A stretch of DNA of 27,939 bases from a virus, in the IMG/VR virus record IMGVR_UViG_3300028640_000036; one strand, given 5' to 3'. Positions 3,363-24,289 of this stretch are shown one piece after another. Each line of letters starts with the position of its first letter. The first letter of the stretch is position 1. Position numbers and translations under genes: made by a program. The notes under the pieces are model-generated. The model ran no database searches. It saw only the letters and a program-made list of their open reading frames with translations, and was not told where the DNA came from.

Positions 3363-4475
3363 ATGAGTAATTTAAAACAATATAAACTTGATACAGAATA
3401 CATACCATACAACCGAATATTTTTATTATCAGACTTACACTTTGGCGTTCGTGCAAATTCACTAGAGTGGCTTCAAAATCAAAAATCATTTTTTCAAGAT
3501 TTTTATATTCCCTATCTTAAGAAAAATTATAAAGAAGGGGACATACTTTTTATTCTTGGTGACTGGTTCGATAATAGGCAATTGCTGGATATTTACGTAA
3601 TGAATACATCCATAGATATTGTTATCGAATTATCGGAGATATTGCCAGTGTATTTTTTAACAGGGAATCATGATATTTATAAAAAATATAACACAGATGT
3701 TAACTCGATAGTGGCATTTCGTCATATTCCTAACGTAAGTATTTATCAAAAACCTACTATTCTTACAAACAATAACAACAAAATATTAATATTGCCTTGG
3801 ATAGGAAATAAAGAATCTGAAGAAAACTATGCTCGGGCAAACAAATTTGATTATATATTTGCACATTCTGAAATAATGGGTTTTAAATATGATAATGGAC
3901 GTGAAATTAAATCAACTTCAGTAGACTTTAGAAAATTTCGAAACATTAAAAGAGTTTTTTCAGGACATATACATAAAAGACAAGAATTAGCCAATATCGT
4001 GTATATAGGATCTCCGTATCATATGAAACGCAGTGATATTGGAAATACTAAGGGCATATATATTTTTAACCCAAATGAAAATACTTTTGAATTTATTGAA
4101 AATAATTATTCTCCCTTATTTCAACGTGTTACTCTTGAGTATATTTTAGATCTTTCTTTAAATAATACTGTAAAACTACTAAACAATAATTACACTGATA
4201 TTATAGTTCCTGATAAATATGTTCATACATTTAATCTTACTCGATTCTTAGATATAATAAAAGAATGTAAATATAAGAAAATTGAAGCTGCAACTGAAAG
4301 AAAAAAGTTTGAAGATGAAATTACTGAACTTGCAGAAGGAGTAGACATAAGAGACATACTTTCATTGCTTGAATTAAGCATTGAAGATTTGGGACATCAA
4401 GCTGAGATTCTTGTTAAATTGAAATTAATGAATAGACGCTATTATGAAAGAGCCAGTCGTGAAGATGTCGAATAA
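3363..4475 (+). CDS. Mre11/SbcD-like recombination nuclease (T4 gp47-like)
   Basis: Metallophosphoesterase motifs SDLHFG, GDWFD, GNHD, AHSE, SGHIH and YIGSP; a gp46 partner lies downstream. Confidence 0.92.
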   Translation: MSNLKQYKLDTEYIPYNRIFLLSDLHFGVRANSLEWLQNQKSFFQDFYIPYLKKNYKEGDILFILGDWFDNRQLLDIYVMNTSIDIVIELSEILPVYFLTGNHDIYKKYNTDVNSIVAFRHIPNVSIYQKPTILTNNNNKILILPWIGNKESEENYARANKFDYIFAHSEIMGFKYDNGREIKSTSVDFRKFRNIKRVFSGHIHKRQELANIVYIGSPYHMKRSDIGNTKGIYIFNPNENTFEFIENNYSPLFQRVTLEYILDLSLNNTVKLLNNNYTDIIVPDKYVHTFNLTRFLDIIKECKYKKIEAATERKKFEDEITELAEGVDIRDILSLLELSIEDLGHQAEILVKLKLMNRRYYERASREDVE

Positions 4476-10903: not shown

Positions 10904-12259
10904 ATGGCATTACATAACAGATATAATAACGAAAATATACTTGTTCGTGCAGTTATTGCCGGATTGCTTAATATTCTTAATAACAAGATTACATATGAAC
11001 AAGTGTGGTCTAATGAAGATATTGAAACAGTAGAAGTTCCATGGTATTATAACATGTCAGGCGATGAAAGATTCATGCAAGATTTTTATACACATTATGG
11101 AGATTGTATAGCCCCTAAACCCGCAGATGGAAATTTTGACATGATACCTCGAGGTGTAATCACTTATACTGGTTCTGAGATTGATTCTGCTCGAACAACT
11201 TCTCGTTATGTTCAGGCAAATTTCCTTAAAGAAGTTAATGGACAATTACAATCTTTTAGGGCATTTCTTTATCTTATCCCTCTTAACGTAAATTTTGATT
11301 GTGAGATTTGGCTAGATACGCAAATAACCGGATTAAAAGTCGAACAAATGATAAGAGAGGTTTTCTACAAAACTATCACATTTTATATTTTCTATAAAGG
11401 ACTAAGAATGGGTTGTTCAGTAGGATTCCCAGAAAGTGTTACACTTGAGAAAAATATTAATTATTCGTTTGAACAAGATAACAAAATAAAACTTACATTT
11501 AATTTACAAGTTGAAGCCTATCAACCGGTGTTTGACAACACAACTGAAGTTGAAGCAGATTCTTACATGAAAGGAATTGGATACAGATTAGTAGATAAAA
11601 AAGACTTAGATAATGATGGCGAAATAATTATTACTACAGATTACAACAATAAGATTGTTCCTAAAGGCATACCACTTGTAATTGAATGGGACTATAAACA
11701 AGAGAATGCTGTCATTAATAGAGTAGATGTTGCATGGACTTTAACAACGGACAATGTAAAAACCAATATCGAAAAGGGTGTAATTAATCATGAATATTAT
11801 GTCTGGAATATCCCTGATACATTTACAAGTTTTAAGCCTCCTCAAATAATATGGGACACGGAATCAGCAGTTAAAGCATATAGAGAACCTGTAATTAGAA
11901 TAGCGCCTAATATATCTACAGGAGAAATTGATACTTTATCATTTTATGTTGTTGATAGTGGCTATTTTGTATCTCCAATGGCAGATACTTCTATAAATGC
12001 TATATTAGAAATGAGAGACACGAATAACAGAGTTGTGTATTCAGGAGATGCATCATTATATTTTAATATTGTTGATTACCAGATAGATGAAAATGATCCT
12101 GTTACGTTACCTTATGGGAACATTATTTATCCGGGGAATATTGATTACAAGACAATTAACTTATATGTAATTAATTCAGTAGTGGGGCATAGCGTATCAT
12201 TATCCCCTTCTGATAATACGCAACCTTACGGGGTTATAACGAATTTAACTATTGTATAA
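10904..12259 (+). CDS. T4 gp15-like tail terminator/sheath stabilizer with C-terminal extension
   Basis: N-terminal ~215 aa recalls the gp15 pattern (VEVPWYYNMSGDERFM, MIPRGVI, IPLNVNFDCEIWLD, VEQMIREVF). About 230 extra beta-rich residues follow. Confidence 0.6.
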   Translation: MALHNRYNNENILVRAVIAGLLNILNNKITYEQVWSNEDIETVEVPWYYNMSGDERFMQDFYTHYGDCIAPKPADGNFDMIPRGVITYTGSEIDSARTTSRYVQANFLKEVNGQLQSFRAFLYLIPLNVNFDCEIWLDTQITGLKVEQMIREVFYKTITFYIFYKGLRMGCSVGFPESVTLEKNINYSFEQDNKIKLTFNLQVEAYQPVFDNTTEVEADSYMKGIGYRLVDKKDLDNDGEIIITTDYNNKIVPKGIPLVIEWDYKQENAVINRVDVAWTLTTDNVKTNIEKGVINHEYYVWNIPDTFTSFKPPQIIWDTESAVKAYREPVIRIAPNISTGEIDTLSFYVVDSGYFVSPMADTSINAILEMRDTNNRVVYSGDASLYFNIVDYQIDENDPVTLPYGNIIYPGNIDYKTINLYVINSVVGHSVSLSPSDNTQPYGVITNLTIV

Positions 12260-16119: not shown

Positions 16120-16710
16120 ATGGCTTTTAATGAATCATATAAGCATTGGCATAAACCGGATATGTCTCCTAATGCTAAAACACAACAAGGATATTATAAG
16201 CTTCAAAACCCGCAAAAATATCTGGGCAATCCATCTCTTGTAATATATCGTTCTTCTTGGGAACATTCGTTTTGCCGTTGGTGTGATTTTTCTCCTTCTG
16301 TTTTACGTTGGAGTTCAGAACCCATAAGAATTCCATATTATGATAGAATCTCCAAACTTGAGGAATGTAAAAAACAAGGCTTAGATCCTAACAATCCAAA
16401 AAATTGGGTTGTTAAATATTATAATACAGATTATTGGATTGAAGTTGATAAAGGCGATGGTGAAATACAGAGAATGTTTATTGAAATAAAACCTTCAGGA
16501 AAATTAAAAAAACCTATCCCACCAAATGCAAATGCACCTCTTAAAGAAATTAGAAAATTTAACAACGATGCTAAAGAATACTTGATAAATGAAGCTAAAT
16601 GGGCTGCAATGAATGCATGGGCAGAAAAAAGTAATGCTAAATTTTATGTCTTTACAGAGCATACGTTAGAAAAACTTATAGGTCGATTTTGGCCAGCGAA
16701 TAACAGATAA
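16120..16710 (+). CDS. T4 gp4-like head completion nuclease (TnsA-like PD-(D/E)XK)
   Basis: NPQKYLGNPSLVIYRSSWE, WSSEPIRIPY, YNTDYW, FIEIKP, NEAKWAAM and FYVFTE. Confidence 0.88.
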   Translation: MAFNESYKHWHKPDMSPNAKTQQGYYKLQNPQKYLGNPSLVIYRSSWEHSFCRWCDFSPSVLRWSSEPIRIPYYDRISKLEECKKQGLDPNNPKNWVVKYYNTDYWIEVDKGDGEIQRMFIEIKPSGKLKKPIPPNANAPLKEIRKFNNDAKEYLINEAKWAAMNAWAEKSNAKFYVFTEHTLEKLIGRFWPANNR

Positions 16711-17414
16711 TGAAATCGCCTAAAGAATTACATGAAATATATAAGCGAATCGATGATATCGAAAAAGTTGCTTATGAAAGATTAATAGAAAATTACTTAC
16801 GACTTGAATTAAAGGGTGATCATAAATTAATTGATATAGACTCAACTGATCAAGAATCTTTAATAGCTCGTGCTAATCGTGGGTTGCCTATCCCAGGAAT
16901 GATTTATATTTTTATCAATGTTGATGAAAATAATCTAGTTGAATTAGAAAATTTTAAAACAGGAAAACAAGTTACTTTTCATGATTTTACTCCAATAGTT
17001 TTTTGCACTTCTTTTAACCCGACAACAAAGTTAATTAAAGGCATTAACATGAATATTTTGCCACCTTCAGAAAGATTAAAGTTTCTTCAAGTGTATTATG
17101 AATATTATAAAAACTTTTTTCAAAAAATAGAAGAAAAAACTCAAAACAATAAATTAGCTGTTAATTATACATATATTATGGCTACAATACTTGGTAAGAA
17201 TCCTCAACTTTTTGAGATATTTAATAAAAAATATAACACTTTATTCGAGTTTGGTTATCGATCATACTATTTAAGAAATGTAAGAAAATTTAGAATGATT
17301 GAATACGAGGAATGGAAATATATCCCGTTCTTAACACCTTCTTATGCGTTTAAAAGAATTAATTTAGAAATACTTTATCAAATGTATTGGGACAATCGAA
17401 ATAACAAAGAATAA
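16710..17414 (+). CDS. Probable T4 gp2-like DNA end-protector protein
   Basis: PIPGMIYIF, HDFTPIVFC, KGINMNILPP and YRSY recall gp2-family motifs; lies between gp4 and the portal. Confidence 0.55.
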   Translation: MKSPKELHEIYKRIDDIEKVAYERLIENYLRLELKGDHKLIDIDSTDQESLIARANRGLPIPGMIYIFINVDENNLVELENFKTGKQVTFHDFTPIVFCTSFNPTTKLIKGINMNILPPSERLKFLQVYYEYYKNFFQKIEEKTQNNKLAVNYTYIMATILGKNPQLFEIFNKKYNTLFEFGYRSYYLRNVRKFRMIEYEEWKYIPFLTPSYAFKRINLEILYQMYWDNRNNKE

Positions 17415-17468: not shown

Positions 17469-19232
17469 GTGGCTGGAATATTTTCATTACGCAATTTAGA
17501 TAGAGGCTCCCGAGGATTTTTAGATAATTTACAAAGAAATATTCGTTATCTTTCTGTGCTAGGAATGAAATGGGATCAAAATCTCATTAAACAATCCAAG
17601 TCTATCGGAATATCTGAAATTCAAGAAGATTCAATGTATAGCCTATATGGTCAACCTCAAATGGCCGCAGGCAGAGATATTGGACAAACAGAATTTATTG
17701 CTTTTTATGACAAAGAATATCCGACAAGAAGAGACTTCTTAAGAAGATTTGCAATGAATGGTGAAATAGAATACGTTTTAGATGTTATTGCCGATGAAAC
17801 TATTATCCAAGATGATGCTAACTTTTTTGCATATCCAAATACGCAAAAGCTTAAATCTGTTTTAAAAGCTGAAAAGGCTAAAGAAATTGTAGATGATTTA
17901 AATGAATCATTTAAAAGAGTTTATTATGCATTTGGATTTAATCAAGGACATGCTGCTTGGCACTATTGTAAAAAATTTCTTATTGACGGATTTCTTGCCT
18001 TTGAAATAATTTATGACGGAGAAGGAGATGAAGATGCAAAAAACATTTTAGGATTTAAAGAATTAGATCCCGTTACATTAGAACCTGAATTACGAATAGA
18101 TGAAGAAGAAAATGAATATCGGGTTTGGGTTCAATTCAGAGGAGACGCAAAAAGACAAAGAGAATTAGTTGATGGTAATGTAATTTATATCTCATGGGCA
18201 CGAAATAATTTTATTTCAAGATTATCTTACGTAGAAAGATTGGTTAGATCTTTTAACATGCTAAGAACAATGGAAAATTCCCGTATTATATGGAACATTA
18301 TTAATTCACAACACAGAATGAAAATAGTTGTTCCTATAGGTACACAATCTGAAGTTAAAGCTCGTACAAGATTATCAGAACTTAGAGGAATATATAAAGA
18401 AGATGTTAACATCGATTATGATAGCGGTGAAATAACTATAAATGGACAACCTAACTTTTCATTTGCAAAACAATATATTATTCCTTCTAAAGAAGGAAGC
18501 CAAACTGAAATAGATTCTTTTGCCCCAGCGGGATATGATCTTTCAGATACAAATGCGTTGGGGTATTTCTGGAAACGGTTTATCATTGAAACGAAAATTC
18601 CAAAGGATAGGTTTTCTTCTATAAGTGGTGAAGATGCAACATCAGCATGGAATTCCGGAGGAGATAGTATTGCAAGAGAGGAAATACGTTTCAATTATTT
18701 TATTAATAGAATTCGTACAATTTTACAGGAAATATTACACAAACCGATGTGGATTCAATTTTGTTTGAAACATCCCGAATTTGCAAAAGATAAAGCCTTG
18801 AAAGGCGCAATAGGCATTCAATTTATTGAAGAAAACTTATTTACTGAAGCTAAGAAAAGAGATATAATTTCAAAAGGCGCAGATATAGTTGAAAAGCTTA
18901 TGAACATTAGACAGCCTGAAGTAGATGATGAAGGAAAAATTACAATGGATGGAATGTACTTTGATCCAAAATTCTTAGTTGAGAAATATATGAACTTTAC
19001 AGAAGAAGATCTTAAACTTAATGCAAAATACAAAAAGGAAAGAAGAGAACAACTTTCTCGTATTGCAGATGCAGTTAAAAGATTAAATAAAAGCGATGAA
19101 GGCGAAAGTGGTGGTGGCTTTGGAGGAGGTTCTGATTTTGGAGGAGGCCCAGACATGGATCTTGGAGGAGGAGCTCCTGAAGAACCAGGAATGGAAGAAA
19201 TGCCTGATGCAGATAGCGACTTAGGAATTTAA
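17469..19232 (+). CDS. Portal protein (T4 gp20-like)
   Basis: GTG start. EIEYVLDVIADETI, FLIDGFLAFEII, GFKELDP, LSYVERLVRSFNMLRTME, YFWKRFIIETKIP and IAREEIRFNYFINRIR; Gly/acidic C-terminal tail. Confidence 0.92.
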   Translation: MAGIFSLRNLDRGSRGFLDNLQRNIRYLSVLGMKWDQNLIKQSKSIGISEIQEDSMYSLYGQPQMAAGRDIGQTEFIAFYDKEYPTRRDFLRRFAMNGEIEYVLDVIADETIIQDDANFFAYPNTQKLKSVLKAEKAKEIVDDLNESFKRVYYAFGFNQGHAAWHYCKKFLIDGFLAFEIIYDGEGDEDAKNILGFKELDPVTLEPELRIDEEENEYRVWVQFRGDAKRQRELVDGNVIYISWARNNFISRLSYVERLVRSFNMLRTMENSRIIWNIINSQHRMKIVVPIGTQSEVKARTRLSELRGIYKEDVNIDYDSGEITINGQPNFSFAKQYIIPSKEGSQTEIDSFAPAGYDLSDTNALGYFWKRFIIETKIPKDRFSSISGEDATSAWNSGGDSIAREEIRFNYFINRIRTILQEILHKPMWIQFCLKHPEFAKDKALKGAIGIQFIEENLFTEAKKRDIISKGADIVEKLMNIRQPEVDDEGKITMDGMYFDPKFLVEKYMNFTEEDLKLNAKYKKERREQLSRIADAVKRLNKSDEGESGGGFGGGSDFGGGPDMDLGGGAPEEPGMEEMPDADSDLGI

Positions 19233-20005: not shown

Positions 20006-20050
20006 TTAACAAAGTTAAAGTATCAAAATTGATTTTTGGTATTATATTTA
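20006..20050 (+). promoter_or_regulatory. Tripartite promoter-like motif upstream of the tmRNA
   Basis: TTAACA-N5-AAAGTATCAAAA-N13-TTATATTTA, with identical boxes and spacing at 23184-23228. Confidence 0.6.
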
Positions 20051-20055
20051 AGATA

Positions 20056-20312
20056 TTGAGACACTCCGAAAGGATAGTTAGAGAGTAGGTATGTAAGACG
20101 CGGGTTCGATTCCCGCCATCTCCACGATTCTTTTCCGTTGGAAAGGAACTTATAAAGGCTTTGATGATTGAGCCAGCTAATCAATCATAAATGGGGATGA
20201 CTTGGCTTTGATTGCATACTAAGGGTAATAGCGAACATCTCAAGACGCAATTAAACGGCGAACAGTTTAAAGAGTATCGTATGGCAGCTTAAGAAGTTTG
20301 TATACGACAAAT
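20056..20312 (+). ncRNA. ssrA: Circularly permuted (two-piece) tmRNA; 5' and 3' limits approximate
   Basis: The tRNA-like 3' half comes first: GAC, T-arm GCGGG-TTCGATT-CCCGC (20100-20116), CATCTCC (20117-20123), discriminator A20124. The 5' half follows: GGGGATG (20193-20199) pairs with CATCTCC including the G3-U70 Ala wobble. Helix 2 is TTGCATAC (20212-20219) with GTATGTAA (20089-20096). TTAAAC precedes tag ORF 20257-20292 (GEQFKEYRMAA*). Confidence 0.92.
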
Positions 20313-20316
20313 GAAA

Positions 20317-20344
20317 AAAAGGGTGGAATTAATTCCACCCTTTT
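20317..20344 (+). terminator. Perfect 28-bp palindrome, terminator of the tmRNA transcript
   Basis: AAAAGGGTGGAATT/AATTCCACCCTTTT; the A-tract upstream means it could act bidirectionally. Confidence 0.8.
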
Positions 20345-20364
20345 AAATTAAACATAATTTATGT

Positions 20365-20994
20365 ATGTCTAAGCATTATTATAATTATTTCTATCGAGTA
20401 GTAAATTTAATTACAGAAAACTTTTATTATGGGGTACATAAAACTTCGAACTTAAACGACATGTATATGGGTTCGGGCAAATACATTAAAAATGCAATTA
20501 AAAAATATGGAAAAGAAAATTTTAAAAGAGAAATTTTAAAATTTTTTAATACATTTGAAGAAGCATTGGATTATGAAGCAAAAATTGTAAATGATAATGT
20601 TTTAAACGACCCCAAATGTTATAATTTAAAAATAGGAGGCAAAGGCGGCTCAGCAAAGGGCAGGATTTCTCCTATGAAAAATAAACATCATTCTGAAATT
20701 ACTCGAAAAAAAATTAGTAATAGCGAAAAAGGAATATCAAAAAATAAGGGTATGCGCATGTCAGACATTACTAAAAGAAAGATTAGTCTTAATAATGGTA
20801 TGCGTAATAATGGCTATTTAGTTTCAGGAAATAAAAATGGCATGTTTAATAAAACTAAGGAAAAAAATCCGAATTATAATACAATTTGGATATACAATAA
20901 AGATTTAAACTATACAAAAAGAATAGATAAAACTTTATTAGATGAATATCTTTTAAAGGGATGGGTAAAAGGGAGAAAAACTAAAGCTACCTAA
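20365..20994 (+). CDS. Free-standing Seg-like GIY-YIG homing endonuclease with NUMOD3-type repeats
   Basis: YFYRVVNLITENFYYGVH, YMGSG, KKYGKENFKREIL, LDYE and CYNLKIGG; NUMOD3-like KHHSEITRKKIS and RMSDITKRKIS; C-terminal KGWVKGR. Confidence 0.88.
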   Translation: MSKHYYNYFYRVVNLITENFYYGVHKTSNLNDMYMGSGKYIKNAIKKYGKENFKREILKFFNTFEEALDYEAKIVNDNVLNDPKCYNLKIGGKGGSAKGRISPMKNKHHSEITRKKISNSEKGISKNKGMRMSDITKRKISLNNGMRNNGYLVSGNKNGMFNKTKEKNPNYNTIWIYNKDLNYTKRIDKTLLDEYLLKGWVKGRKTKAT

Positions 20995-21060
20995 GTGCCG
21001 GCTTTTTTTATCTTTTTTCATAGAAGTAAAGAATATATAAATAAAATAAATGTTAAAGAT

Positions 21061-22887: not shown

Positions 22888-23176
22888 AAATAAGAGTATG
22901 GCATACACGTACCCGAATAAACCGAACTCCGAAAAAAATAAAATCAATGAATATATTTCTGATTATGCAGAAAATAAAGTTCTGTATGATTTAATGAAAA
23001 AACATTCGCCGTATCATGTAAAAATAATAGAAGACATTTCTGACAATTGGTTTATTCAAATTTTATTCTATAAACGAGGAACAGGGGTTATTGTAGATAA
23101 GCATTCTATTATTCGACCGGATTTAAAGACATGGATAAGCTATTTAGAATCTTTGGGATATAAAATTGTTAATTAA
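22880..23176 (+). CDS. Hypothetical protein
   Basis: 98 aa; alternative start ATG 22898. Confidence 0.6.
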   Translation: MFKNKSMAYTYPNKPNSEKNKINEYISDYAENKVLYDLMKKHSPYHVKIIEDISDNWFIQILFYKRGTGVIVDKHSIIRPDLKTWISYLESLGYKIVN

Positions 23177-23183
23177 TTTTTAT

Positions 23184-23261
23184 TTAACAGATAAAAAGTA
23201 TCAAAAACGTCTTTTTGGTTTATATTTATATAAAAACTTTTGAATATTCAATAAATATAAT
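23184..23261 (+). promoter_or_regulatory. Tandem promoter region: tripartite motif then AAAACTT-N16-TATAAT
   Basis: TTAACA 23184, AAAGTATCAAAA 23195, TTATATTTA 23220-23228; then AAAACTT 23233-23239 and TATAAT 23256-23261. Confidence 0.6.
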
Positions 23262-23665: not shown

Positions 23666-24289
23666 ATGGCTAAAGACACAAGTATTCAAACGTTAGCATT
23701 GAATTTTATAAAAAACAAAAATAACGAAAATTTTTCAAATCTTATTAAACGTCTTAAGCCCGGTCTTTTTTCTTTTGTGTACAATTTTGTAAAAGATAAA
23801 GATCTTGCAAATGATGTTGTTTCGCAAACTATCATTTTGATGTGGCAAAAAATTGATCAATACAATCATAAGTACAATTTTTCAACATGGGTTTATGCAA
23901 TTGCAAAAAATGAATCGTTAGGTGCTATAAGACAAAAGAATAAAGTTTTGTCTTATGATAAGTACATGAATAATCATTCTCGTTTACTTCAGTTATATAA
24001 TCCCGTTTTTAACATGAATACTGAAGTAATAGGCCCGGTTGGAGAAGAACTTACACGAAAATTATTTGACGCCTCATTAGCTGTCATTAATGAATTAAAA
24101 GAGCCATATCGTACAGTTATGTTAGAAAGAGAAATTAAGCAAAAACAACTTAATGACATAGCAAATGATTTAGGATGGAATTTATCAACTGTTAAAACAA
24201 GATTACGTAAAGGACGAAAGGATGTAGCAGAAGTTTTATATAAAAAATATCCTGATTTAGTGGATTCGTATCTTGGAAATGAAACTTAA
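23666..24289 (+). CDS. ECF-type sigma-70 family factor
   Basis: Region 2: DLANDVVSQTIILMWQKIDQY and FSTWVYAIAKN. Region 4 HTH: LKEPYRTVMLERE and LNDIANDLGWNLSTVKTRLRKGR. 207 aa with no region 3. Confidence 0.88.
   Translation: MAKDTSIQTLALNFIKNKNNENFSNLIKRLKPGLFSFVYNFVKDKDLANDVVSQTIILMWQKIDQYNHKYNFSTWVYAIAKNESLGAIRQKNKVLSYDKYMNNHSRLLQLYNPVFNMNTEVIGPVGEELTRKLFDASLAVINELKEPYRTVMLEREIKQKQLNDIANDLGWNLSTVKTRLRKGRKDVAEVLYKKYPDLVDSYLGNET

Follow-up and report, generated by a model that had tools for sequence, protein, structure and literature searches.

Does the short RNA locus that lies between the portal gene and a homing endonuclease gene of a large-phage contig encode a working tmRNA whose two parts stand in permuted order, and where would such a gene fit among the tmRNAs already described from phages and bacteria? 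The window considered here, which is the whole 27,939-nucleotide stretch of DNA that was analysed, represents bases 418–28356 of a 37-kb IMG/VR viral contig. Since the completeness of this contig is 9% by CheckV, the genome is expected to be approximately 400 kb. The window has a G+C content of 30%, plus-strand ORFs account for 93% of it under the standard code, and TAA serves as the stop codon in 34 of the 37 ORFs. A first-pass annotation made from the letters alone had placed a circularly permuted tmRNA in a "T4-like" phage. A large phage with a portal gene is indeed present; however, "T4-like" is a loose description since the portal is closest to those of the Lak megaphages. Its best named matches are from Prevotella Lak megaphages (~43% identity) and the huge phage LR756500 (38%), with portal identities of 39–44% quoted for the Lak phages and LR756500 together. 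It is considered highly probable that the locus is a functional two-piece tmRNA gene in a ~400-kb phage whose clade has the Lak megaphages as relatives, with the function being read from sequence features.

The gene occupies positions 20056–20345 of the plus strand in the order acceptor piece, spacer and coding piece (Table 1). All elements named in the first-pass annotation were found at the coordinates it gave or a few bases away. As had been proposed, the T-arm and the acceptor 3' strand (20100–20124) lie 5' of the GGGGATG strand that starts at 20193, which reverses the gene order of the standard one-piece form (RF00023). The two acceptor strands make the proposed 7-bp stem with G3-U70, the alanine identity pair, as belongs to the tRNA-like domain of a tmRNA along with a discriminator A and a T-loop of the TTCGAnT type, and helix 2 joins the two pieces by 8 bp, one of which is a G-U pair. 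One correction concerns the 3' end of the acceptor piece, where no CCA is encoded, as A20124 is followed directly by CGA. The RNA would thus consist of pieces of ~72 and 153 nt, or ~225 nt in total. The spacer contains two hairpins (20128–20148 and 20160–20191), the second of which stops one base before G1.

Table 1. Features of the tmRNA locus and of the surrounding phage genes (window coordinates).
Feature	Position	Strand	Remarks
Head closure gene	16120–16710		phage structural
gp2-like DNA end protector gene	16710–17414		
Portal gene	17469–19232		5' of the tmRNA locus
Promoter-like motif	20006–20050	+	AGTATCAAAA at 20019–20028, ~10 nt, then TTTTTGGTATTATATTT
Acceptor piece (3' part of tRNA-like domain)	20056–20124	+	~69 nt before CCA addition
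Helix X, 5' strand	20056–20061	+	TTGAGA; acceptor piece
Hairpin	20065–20074	+	TCC-GAAA-GGA; acceptor piece
Helix 2, 3' strand	20089–20096	+	GTATGTAA; acceptor piece
T-arm	20100–20104, 20112–20116	+	GCGGG, loop TTCGATT, CCCGC; acceptor piece
Acceptor stem, 3' strand	20117–20123	+	CATCTCC
Discriminator	20124	+	A
Intervening spacer	20125–20192	+	68 nt; between the two pieces
Coding piece	20193–20345	+	~153 nt
Acceptor stem, 5' strand	20193–20199	+	GGGGATG; coding piece
Helix 2, 5' strand	20212–20219	+	TTGCATAC; coding piece
Helix X, 3' strand	20238–20243	+	TCTCAA; coding piece, just 5' of the resume region
Tag frame	20257–20289	+	GEQFKEYRMAA; resume codon GGC at 20257; stop codon TAA at 20290–20292
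Helix 5	20286–20298	+	stop codon in loop; outer stem 20277–20282/20302–20307
Terminator-like hairpin	20321–20340	+	followed by TTTT (T-run to 20344)
GIY-YIG homing endonuclease ORF	20365–20994		3' of the tmRNA locus
Sigma-factor-like gene	23666–24289		inside the next operon after the tmRNA

The message part of the coding piece has the makings of a tag frame. There is no start codon, the resume codon is preceded by UAA at −5 to −3 and by C at −1, the frame ends in two alanine codons and the stop codon falls within helix 5, all of which are expected of a tmRNA. The spacing of this UAA is that of the UAG in E. coli, and the U-A at −5/−4 together with the C at −1 match the E. coli U85-A86 context. 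The tag ORF with its AA-stop ending (20257–20292) had been recognized correctly in the first-pass annotation, and its description of the tag as Bacteroidota-style agrees with the GE start, which is shared with the native Bacteroides tag GETNYALAA (bioRxiv 10.1101/2025.03.18.644028).

When the native sequence was compared to tmRNA models, a check that the first-pass annotation had called for, the Rfam 15 model RF04321 (tmRNA_permuted) matched with 61.2 bits, which is above its gathering score of 47 (E = 9e-10, whole window). The match spans all 213 model positions, and among the control genomes, the cut-off was exceeded by Caulobacter only. RF04321 originates in a 2025 tmRNA database paper with 79 phage sequences, and the older models RF01849, RF01850 and RF01851 are merged in it (PMC11915505). 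An annotation based on Rfam 15 labels the locus automatically. Of the lineage-specific models, the best for the window is beta_tmRNA (RF01850) with 37.4 bits against a cut-off of 84; RF01849 (alpha) and RF01851 (cyanobacterial) are absent among the matches listed at E up to 10, where lower-scoring clan members are possibly hidden. Among the matches listed, no alpha-, beta- or cyanobacterial model reaches its cut-off.

ARAGORN, which had also been suggested as a check, gave a divided answer. At default settings, there was no call in the window or in the related contigs L033 and L060. With the relaxed threshold (-ps), a permuted tmRNA was called in the window with the same frame, GEQFKEYRMAA, and a one-piece tmRNA was called when the pieces were de-permuted in silico. 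In two other relatives, L027 (tag GENVYDYQMAA) and L009, a permuted tmRNA was called at default settings. A blastn search of the locus and of the group B genes described below against 50,697 GenBank phage records found no full-length relative; the matches were limited to a stretch of 30–35 nt, the T-arm of one-piece phage tmRNAs that are unrelated.

Relatives were gathered by pattern scans of IMG/VR and metagenomes, which yielded many permuted tmRNA genes starting with GGGGATGACTTGG. Two groups share the reduced architecture of the window gene. Group A is made up of the window, L033, L027, L060, L081/83, L088 and L090–94, while group B has more than 10 contigs, several of which are from Tara Oceans samples. 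RF04321 scored the relatives at 52–78 bits with one at 37, so that all but one are above the cut-off of 47. The contigs of group A show synteny with the window, their portals being 64–84% identical, and the tmRNA gene was found 3' of the portal gene in 12/12 related contigs with enough downstream sequence. One contig of the clade is 260 kb in length and 64% complete, which again leads to a genome of ~400 kb.

These contigs bear on the possibility that a one-piece tmRNA was mis-joined during assembly or that a piece of bacterial DNA was sorted among the viral contigs. The window does come from a metagenome assembly, with an estimated completeness of 9% for its contig. An artefact of this kind had been named in the first-pass annotation as grounds for giving up the proposal; it is not what the relatives show, since the permuted order recurs on >20 independent contigs from different samples and with different spacers of 16–135 nt, an arrangement that excludes mis-assembly. 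Phage genes (portal, head closure, homing endonuclease) flank the tmRNA on both sides. When 185,579 bacterial species genomes were scanned with an exact pattern, there were two chance matches in GC-rich coding DNA and no true match, which is weak evidence of absence. The probability that remains for an artefact or a bacterial fragment is negligible.

Across the relatives, the spacer between the pieces is conserved neither in sequence nor in length, and this variability fits a segment that is discarded. The shortest spacer belongs to L088 (positions 4040–4060), where G1 follows only 16 nt after the last encoded base of the acceptor piece, compared to up to 135 nt in the others.

The two-piece fold itself was examined by covariation. 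Six helices (X, 2, inner 5, the acceptor and T stems and the hairpin of the acceptor piece) were placed in an alignment of 11 sequences. Paired cells amount to 96.2% in this alignment, and pairing falls to 36–56% if the partners are slid by 1–3 columns. Compensatory changes on both sides were observed in 11 of 34 pairs, G3-U70 is invariant (11/11), and none of 500 shuffles was as high as the observed covariation values. Taken with the synteny, these figures for pairing, compensation and the G3-U70 pair rule out chance as well as faulty assembly. Both the acceptor stem and the T stem carry compensatory changes, the latter having four forms across groups A and B. The cross-piece helix 2 of the first-pass annotation is maintained in four forms in the two groups (TTGCATAC/GTATGTAA, ATTGAG/CTCAAT, ACAATG/CATTGT and AAAGAG/CTCTTT), as is helix X (TTGAGA/TCTCAA, TGAAC/GTTCA, TGACC/GGTCA and TGATC/GATCA). 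Helix 5 covaries also, with the stop-codon hairpin being AGCTT-AAG-AAGTT in the window, AGCAT-AAG-ATGCT in L027 and TGCGT-AAC-ACGCA in L060.

Pairing between the pieces is thus made up of the acceptor stem, helix 2 and helix X, and it is supported by covariation. Since the two ends of helix X come from the start of the acceptor piece and from just before the resume region, the pieces form one long interrupted helix with the message as a 3' tail. The outer helix in the RF04321 alignment (GAUAG at 20073) contained mismatches and was replaced by the covarying helix X. A helix Y that was predicted by cofolding for group B was dropped, as a local 7-bp tetraloop hairpin with compensatory changes fits better. 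Between helix 2 and helix X there is a small hairpin that L027 and L060 have in a stronger form than the window and L033, and this weakness counts, as does the unencoded CCA, against the reading as a functional gene.

A pseudoknot ring (PK1–PK4) is absent from the window RNA, and cofolds of the locus gave simple hairpins only. With 37 nt from helix 2 to the resume codon and ~28 nt from the stop codon to the terminator hairpin, group A leaves no space in which pseudoknots could form. PK1 matters in E. coli. Pseudoknots are reduced in the known two-piece forms too, and for this reason their absence is not disqualifying. Group B retains a structured 60-nt domain 3' of the tag, which is possibly a pseudoknot.

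The tags of group A are always 11 codons in length with a GE start, an [MI]AA end and a variable middle. The sequences are GEQFKEYRMAA, GEQFNEYRIAA, GEQFNEMKMAA, GENVYEMKMAA, GENVYDYQMAA, GENVYKMQMAA and GEKQTQFAMAA, and group B has either GEHVEMAMAA or GEQVEMAMAA. The conserved ends and variable middle, when read from the sequences, suggest that the degradation signal used during infection is one of the phage's own.

This pattern also bears on whether the gene is a decaying or non-functional remnant, or else a tRNA-like decoy that titrates SmpB and does not tag, in the manner of the RNA from mycobacteriophage DS6A. The DS6A tmRNA consists of the tRNA-like domain only, lacks a tag frame and is considered inhibitory to the host tmRNA (PMC4131195, PMC11915505), so there is an inhibitory phage form on record, and the lack of pseudoknots, the modest RF04321 score, the need for a relaxed ARAGORN threshold and the T-loop changes in L033 would all suit such a role. 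A remnant or decoy would not, however, be expected to hold on in every member to the 11-codon frame, the resume context and the stop-in-hairpin arrangement, with only the middle of the tag varying, nor to keep every helix by compensatory changes, and the gene has been retained despite portal divergence down to 64% identity. The window gene resembles the DS6A RNA as a reduced phage tmRNA derivative and differs from it by its conserved tag frame. A remnant or decoy is thus judged to be improbable, and the model scores, the covariation, the retention of the tag frame and the synteny over this range of portal divergence argue for a genuine gene under selection.

Individual copies show further changes. 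In L033 (positions 11130–11150), the T-loop is ATCGTAC compared to TTCGATT in the window, and RF04321 still assigns 53 bits. The conserved T54 and A58 are jointly swapped to A and T, and from the sequence, this double swap might keep the reverse-Hoogsteen pair. Given the altered T-loop, some copies may be drifting. The window and L033 are 98–100% identical at the nucleotide level across ~20201–21000 with flanks at ~78–80%, and the homing endonuclease protein is 100% identical between them while adjacent genes are at 37–88%. To judge by these identities, this looks like recent homing with co-conversion that extends into the tmRNA coding piece. In L081-type relatives, a GIY-YIG gene is directly 3' of the tmRNA terminator, whereas L027 is without one there. 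L092 is a mosaic with a 3' half like the window and a 5' half like L081.

A promoter-like motif ends ~6 bases 5' of helix X. A second copy of the motif is found at 23173–23228, 5' of the next operon, and both sites consist of AGTATCAAAA, ~10 nt and then TTTTTGGT-TTATATTT. AGTATCAAAA occurs at these two sites only, with 0.24 expected. A similar motif (GTA[TC]CAAAA, ~10 nt, TATTATA-type box) lies 5' of the tmRNA in L033, L027 and L060. From these recurrences, AGTATCAAAA/TTTTTGGTATTATATTT is probably a phage promoter, and the 5' end of the acceptor piece at 20056 was placed from the motif position and helix X. The terminator of the first-pass annotation is present as a plus-strand hairpin with a T-run (20321–20344); the scan tool, however, called it on the minus strand only. 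Canonical plus-strand terminators are found at the corresponding place in L027 and L081. In group B (L009, L025, L028 and others), the spacer has two promoter-like copies, ACTATATTCA...TATAAT, the last of which stops exactly at G1, and directly before the acceptor piece comes a third copy of reduced length (ACTATATT-TATAAT). The two pieces of group B may be transcribed separately.

For the window gene, a single transcript would start at ~20053–20056 from the phage promoter and end at the hairpin (~20345). RNase P would cleave before G20193, a processing enzyme such as RNase Z would trim the 3' side after A20124, and a CCA-adding enzyme would complete that end, with the spacer being removed on maturation. 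It is the missing CCA that leads to the combination of RNase P cleavage, 3' trimming and CCA addition. In the 260-kb relative, a gene of 426 codons encodes a nucleotidyltransferase of the PolyA_pol family and the CCA-adding type (L095, G003:157331–157720), which fits a tmRNA without an encoded CCA. The assembled RNA would have no pseudoknot ring in its body, and the message part would be a free 3' tail behind the extended helix 2. Once charged by alanyl-tRNA synthetase, it would enter stalled ribosomes with host SmpB and append A-GEQFKEYRMAA to the unfinished proteins so that the ribosome is released and the protein is marked for proteolysis. A search of contigs G000, G001, G003 and G004, which include the 260-kb relative, found no smpB. 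Use of the host SmpB is thus a working assumption, and a plausible one.

The Lak megaphages provide the nearest named comparison for the origin of the gene. Lak-A1, Lak-B4, Lak-C1 and LR756500 each carry a tmRNA gene of the one-piece form (47–95 bits with RF00023), and RF04321 finds no match in these four. In Lak-A1 (L074), Lak-C1 (L075) and Lak-B4 (L076), the one-piece tmRNA is ~400 nt in length and immediately 5' of the portal gene, with RF00023 scores of 47–54 bits. The tags are DDEIDFRMAA or DDEIEFRMAA in Lak and GNNAEMRMAA in LR756500, and no CCA is encoded. Lak-A2 and LR756500 are entered as 'linear' in a published survey of phage tmRNAs (Table S1 of PMC9004378). With Lak and LR756500, the window shares a related portal, the RMAA tag end and the absence of an encoded CCA, and the Lak gene adjoins the portal. 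The Lak gene differs in its one-piece form, its length, its RF00023 match, its position 5' of the portal, its divergent tRNA-like domain and its DD tag start. The last 15 nt of the tag (CGTATGGCAGCTTAA) are identical between the window and three Lak phages. From the GE tag, the lack of an encoded CCA, the relatedness to Lak and the RMAA end, a Bacteroidota-type host would fit.

The permutation may then have arisen in this megaphage lineage, or in phages of Bacteroidota, from a Lak-like one-piece gene and independently of the alpha-, beta- and cyanobacterial events. Such an origin would account for one-piece genes without an RF04321 match in the four huge phages, for a tmRNA beside the portal in Lak as well, for the shared RMAA end and CGTATGGCAGCTTAA, for the unencoded CCA as in Lak, for the GE start as in Bacteroides and for the failure of any lineage-specific model to reach its cut-off for the window among the matches listed. 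It would also suit an IMG/VR contig of 23 kb (L034/L080) with a one-piece phage tmRNA whose tRNA-like domain is identical to that of the permuted group B genes L059 and L068. The resume region of that one-piece gene, GGCGAAAAT, is like those of L027 and L060, but its tag is long at 33 residues; such a gene may connect the two forms.

Other observations point away from a separate origin. The tRNA-like core of the window is 84–88% identical to those of the permuted phage genes L063, L052 and L011 and is much less like that of Lak; the core is too short and conserved for a tree, and the comparison of core identities does not separate the origins. L052 and L011, with cores close to that of the window, pass the beta_tmRNA model, which is also the best lineage model for the window even if it falls below its cut-off. 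The tmRNA is upstream of the portal in Lak and downstream in the window, and the tags of the closest relatives, L027 and L060, end with QMAA and not RMAA. A separate permutation within this lineage is accordingly regarded as rather unlikely. The joint proposition, that there was a further independent two-piece origin in phages with Bacteroidota hosts and that these RNAs are among the smallest tag-encoding tmRNAs (~225 nt, no pseudoknots), is held with similar doubt. If it were true, trans-translation would work with no more than the tRNA-like domain, a lengthened helix 2 and a message tail left free.

With the locus taken as a functional gene, the window serves as a clean example of a strongly reduced two-piece tmRNA that has support from comparison with relatives and is fixed in a clade of ~400-kb phages. 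As the Lak relatives keep the one-piece form, the clade constitutes a natural test set for the switching of gene form and also for how little tmRNA suffices for ribosome rescue. Should it be true that the phage sets the degradation signal, this would bear on how huge phages take over the quality control of host translation.

Among bacteria, Caulobacter crescentus is reportedly the type case of the two-piece tmRNA, from the work of Keiler, Shapiro and Williams in 2000. The topology of this type is the same as that of the window gene: the acceptor piece is first, its 5' part is paired to the coding piece beyond helix 2 and the tag follows. In contrast to the bacterial two-piece forms, the window gene is phage-borne, much smaller and without the lineage-specific pseudoknots and helices.

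Among phages, the view in the first-pass annotation that tmRNAs are one-piece, and with it the novelty of the locus, does not stand. In 18,146 phage genomes, Buchholz et al. (2022) catalogued 133 unique tmRNAs, 53 of which were two-piece by ARAGORN (PMC9004378), and tmRNAs and SmpB were noted in huge phages by Al-Shayeb et al. (2020). The two-piece entries of Table S1 in the former study include Melnitz, a phage of OM43 whose ssrA grouped phylogenetically with alphaproteobacterial forms, the pelagimyophages HTVC008M and Mosig, Synechococcus phages S-CAM1, S-SSM7 and S-CRM01, and phiCbK-like Caulobacter phages; the hosts in the table include Caulobacter, Synechococcus, Pelagibacter, Stenotrophomonas and Citrobacter (PMC9004378). 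Cellulophaga phage phi4:1, a 'permuted' entry of the same table, was considered as a precedent from Bacteroidota phages. It gave 15.6 bits with RF04321 and no ARAGORN call at that place, and it is thus not a confirmed precedent.

Phages of the Melnitz, HTVC008M and S-CAM1 type are like the window in having the permuted order, a large lytic-type phage genome and a match to the permuted model, and presumably also in relying on host tRNA enzymes for maturation and on host SmpB. Among the viral and metagenome contigs examined, the permuted genes above the cut-off of the alpha or beta model have ANDx-type tags, and those checked encode CCA; the permuted phage genes examined with a tag that starts with G do not encode it. 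Four features set the window gene apart from the alpha- and beta-type phage forms: no lineage cut-off is reached among the matches listed, CCA is not encoded, the tag is of the GE...MAA kind and space for pseudoknots is lacking. Two-piece tmRNA in phages is thus already known, and the window provides an unusually small example of it and not a new category.
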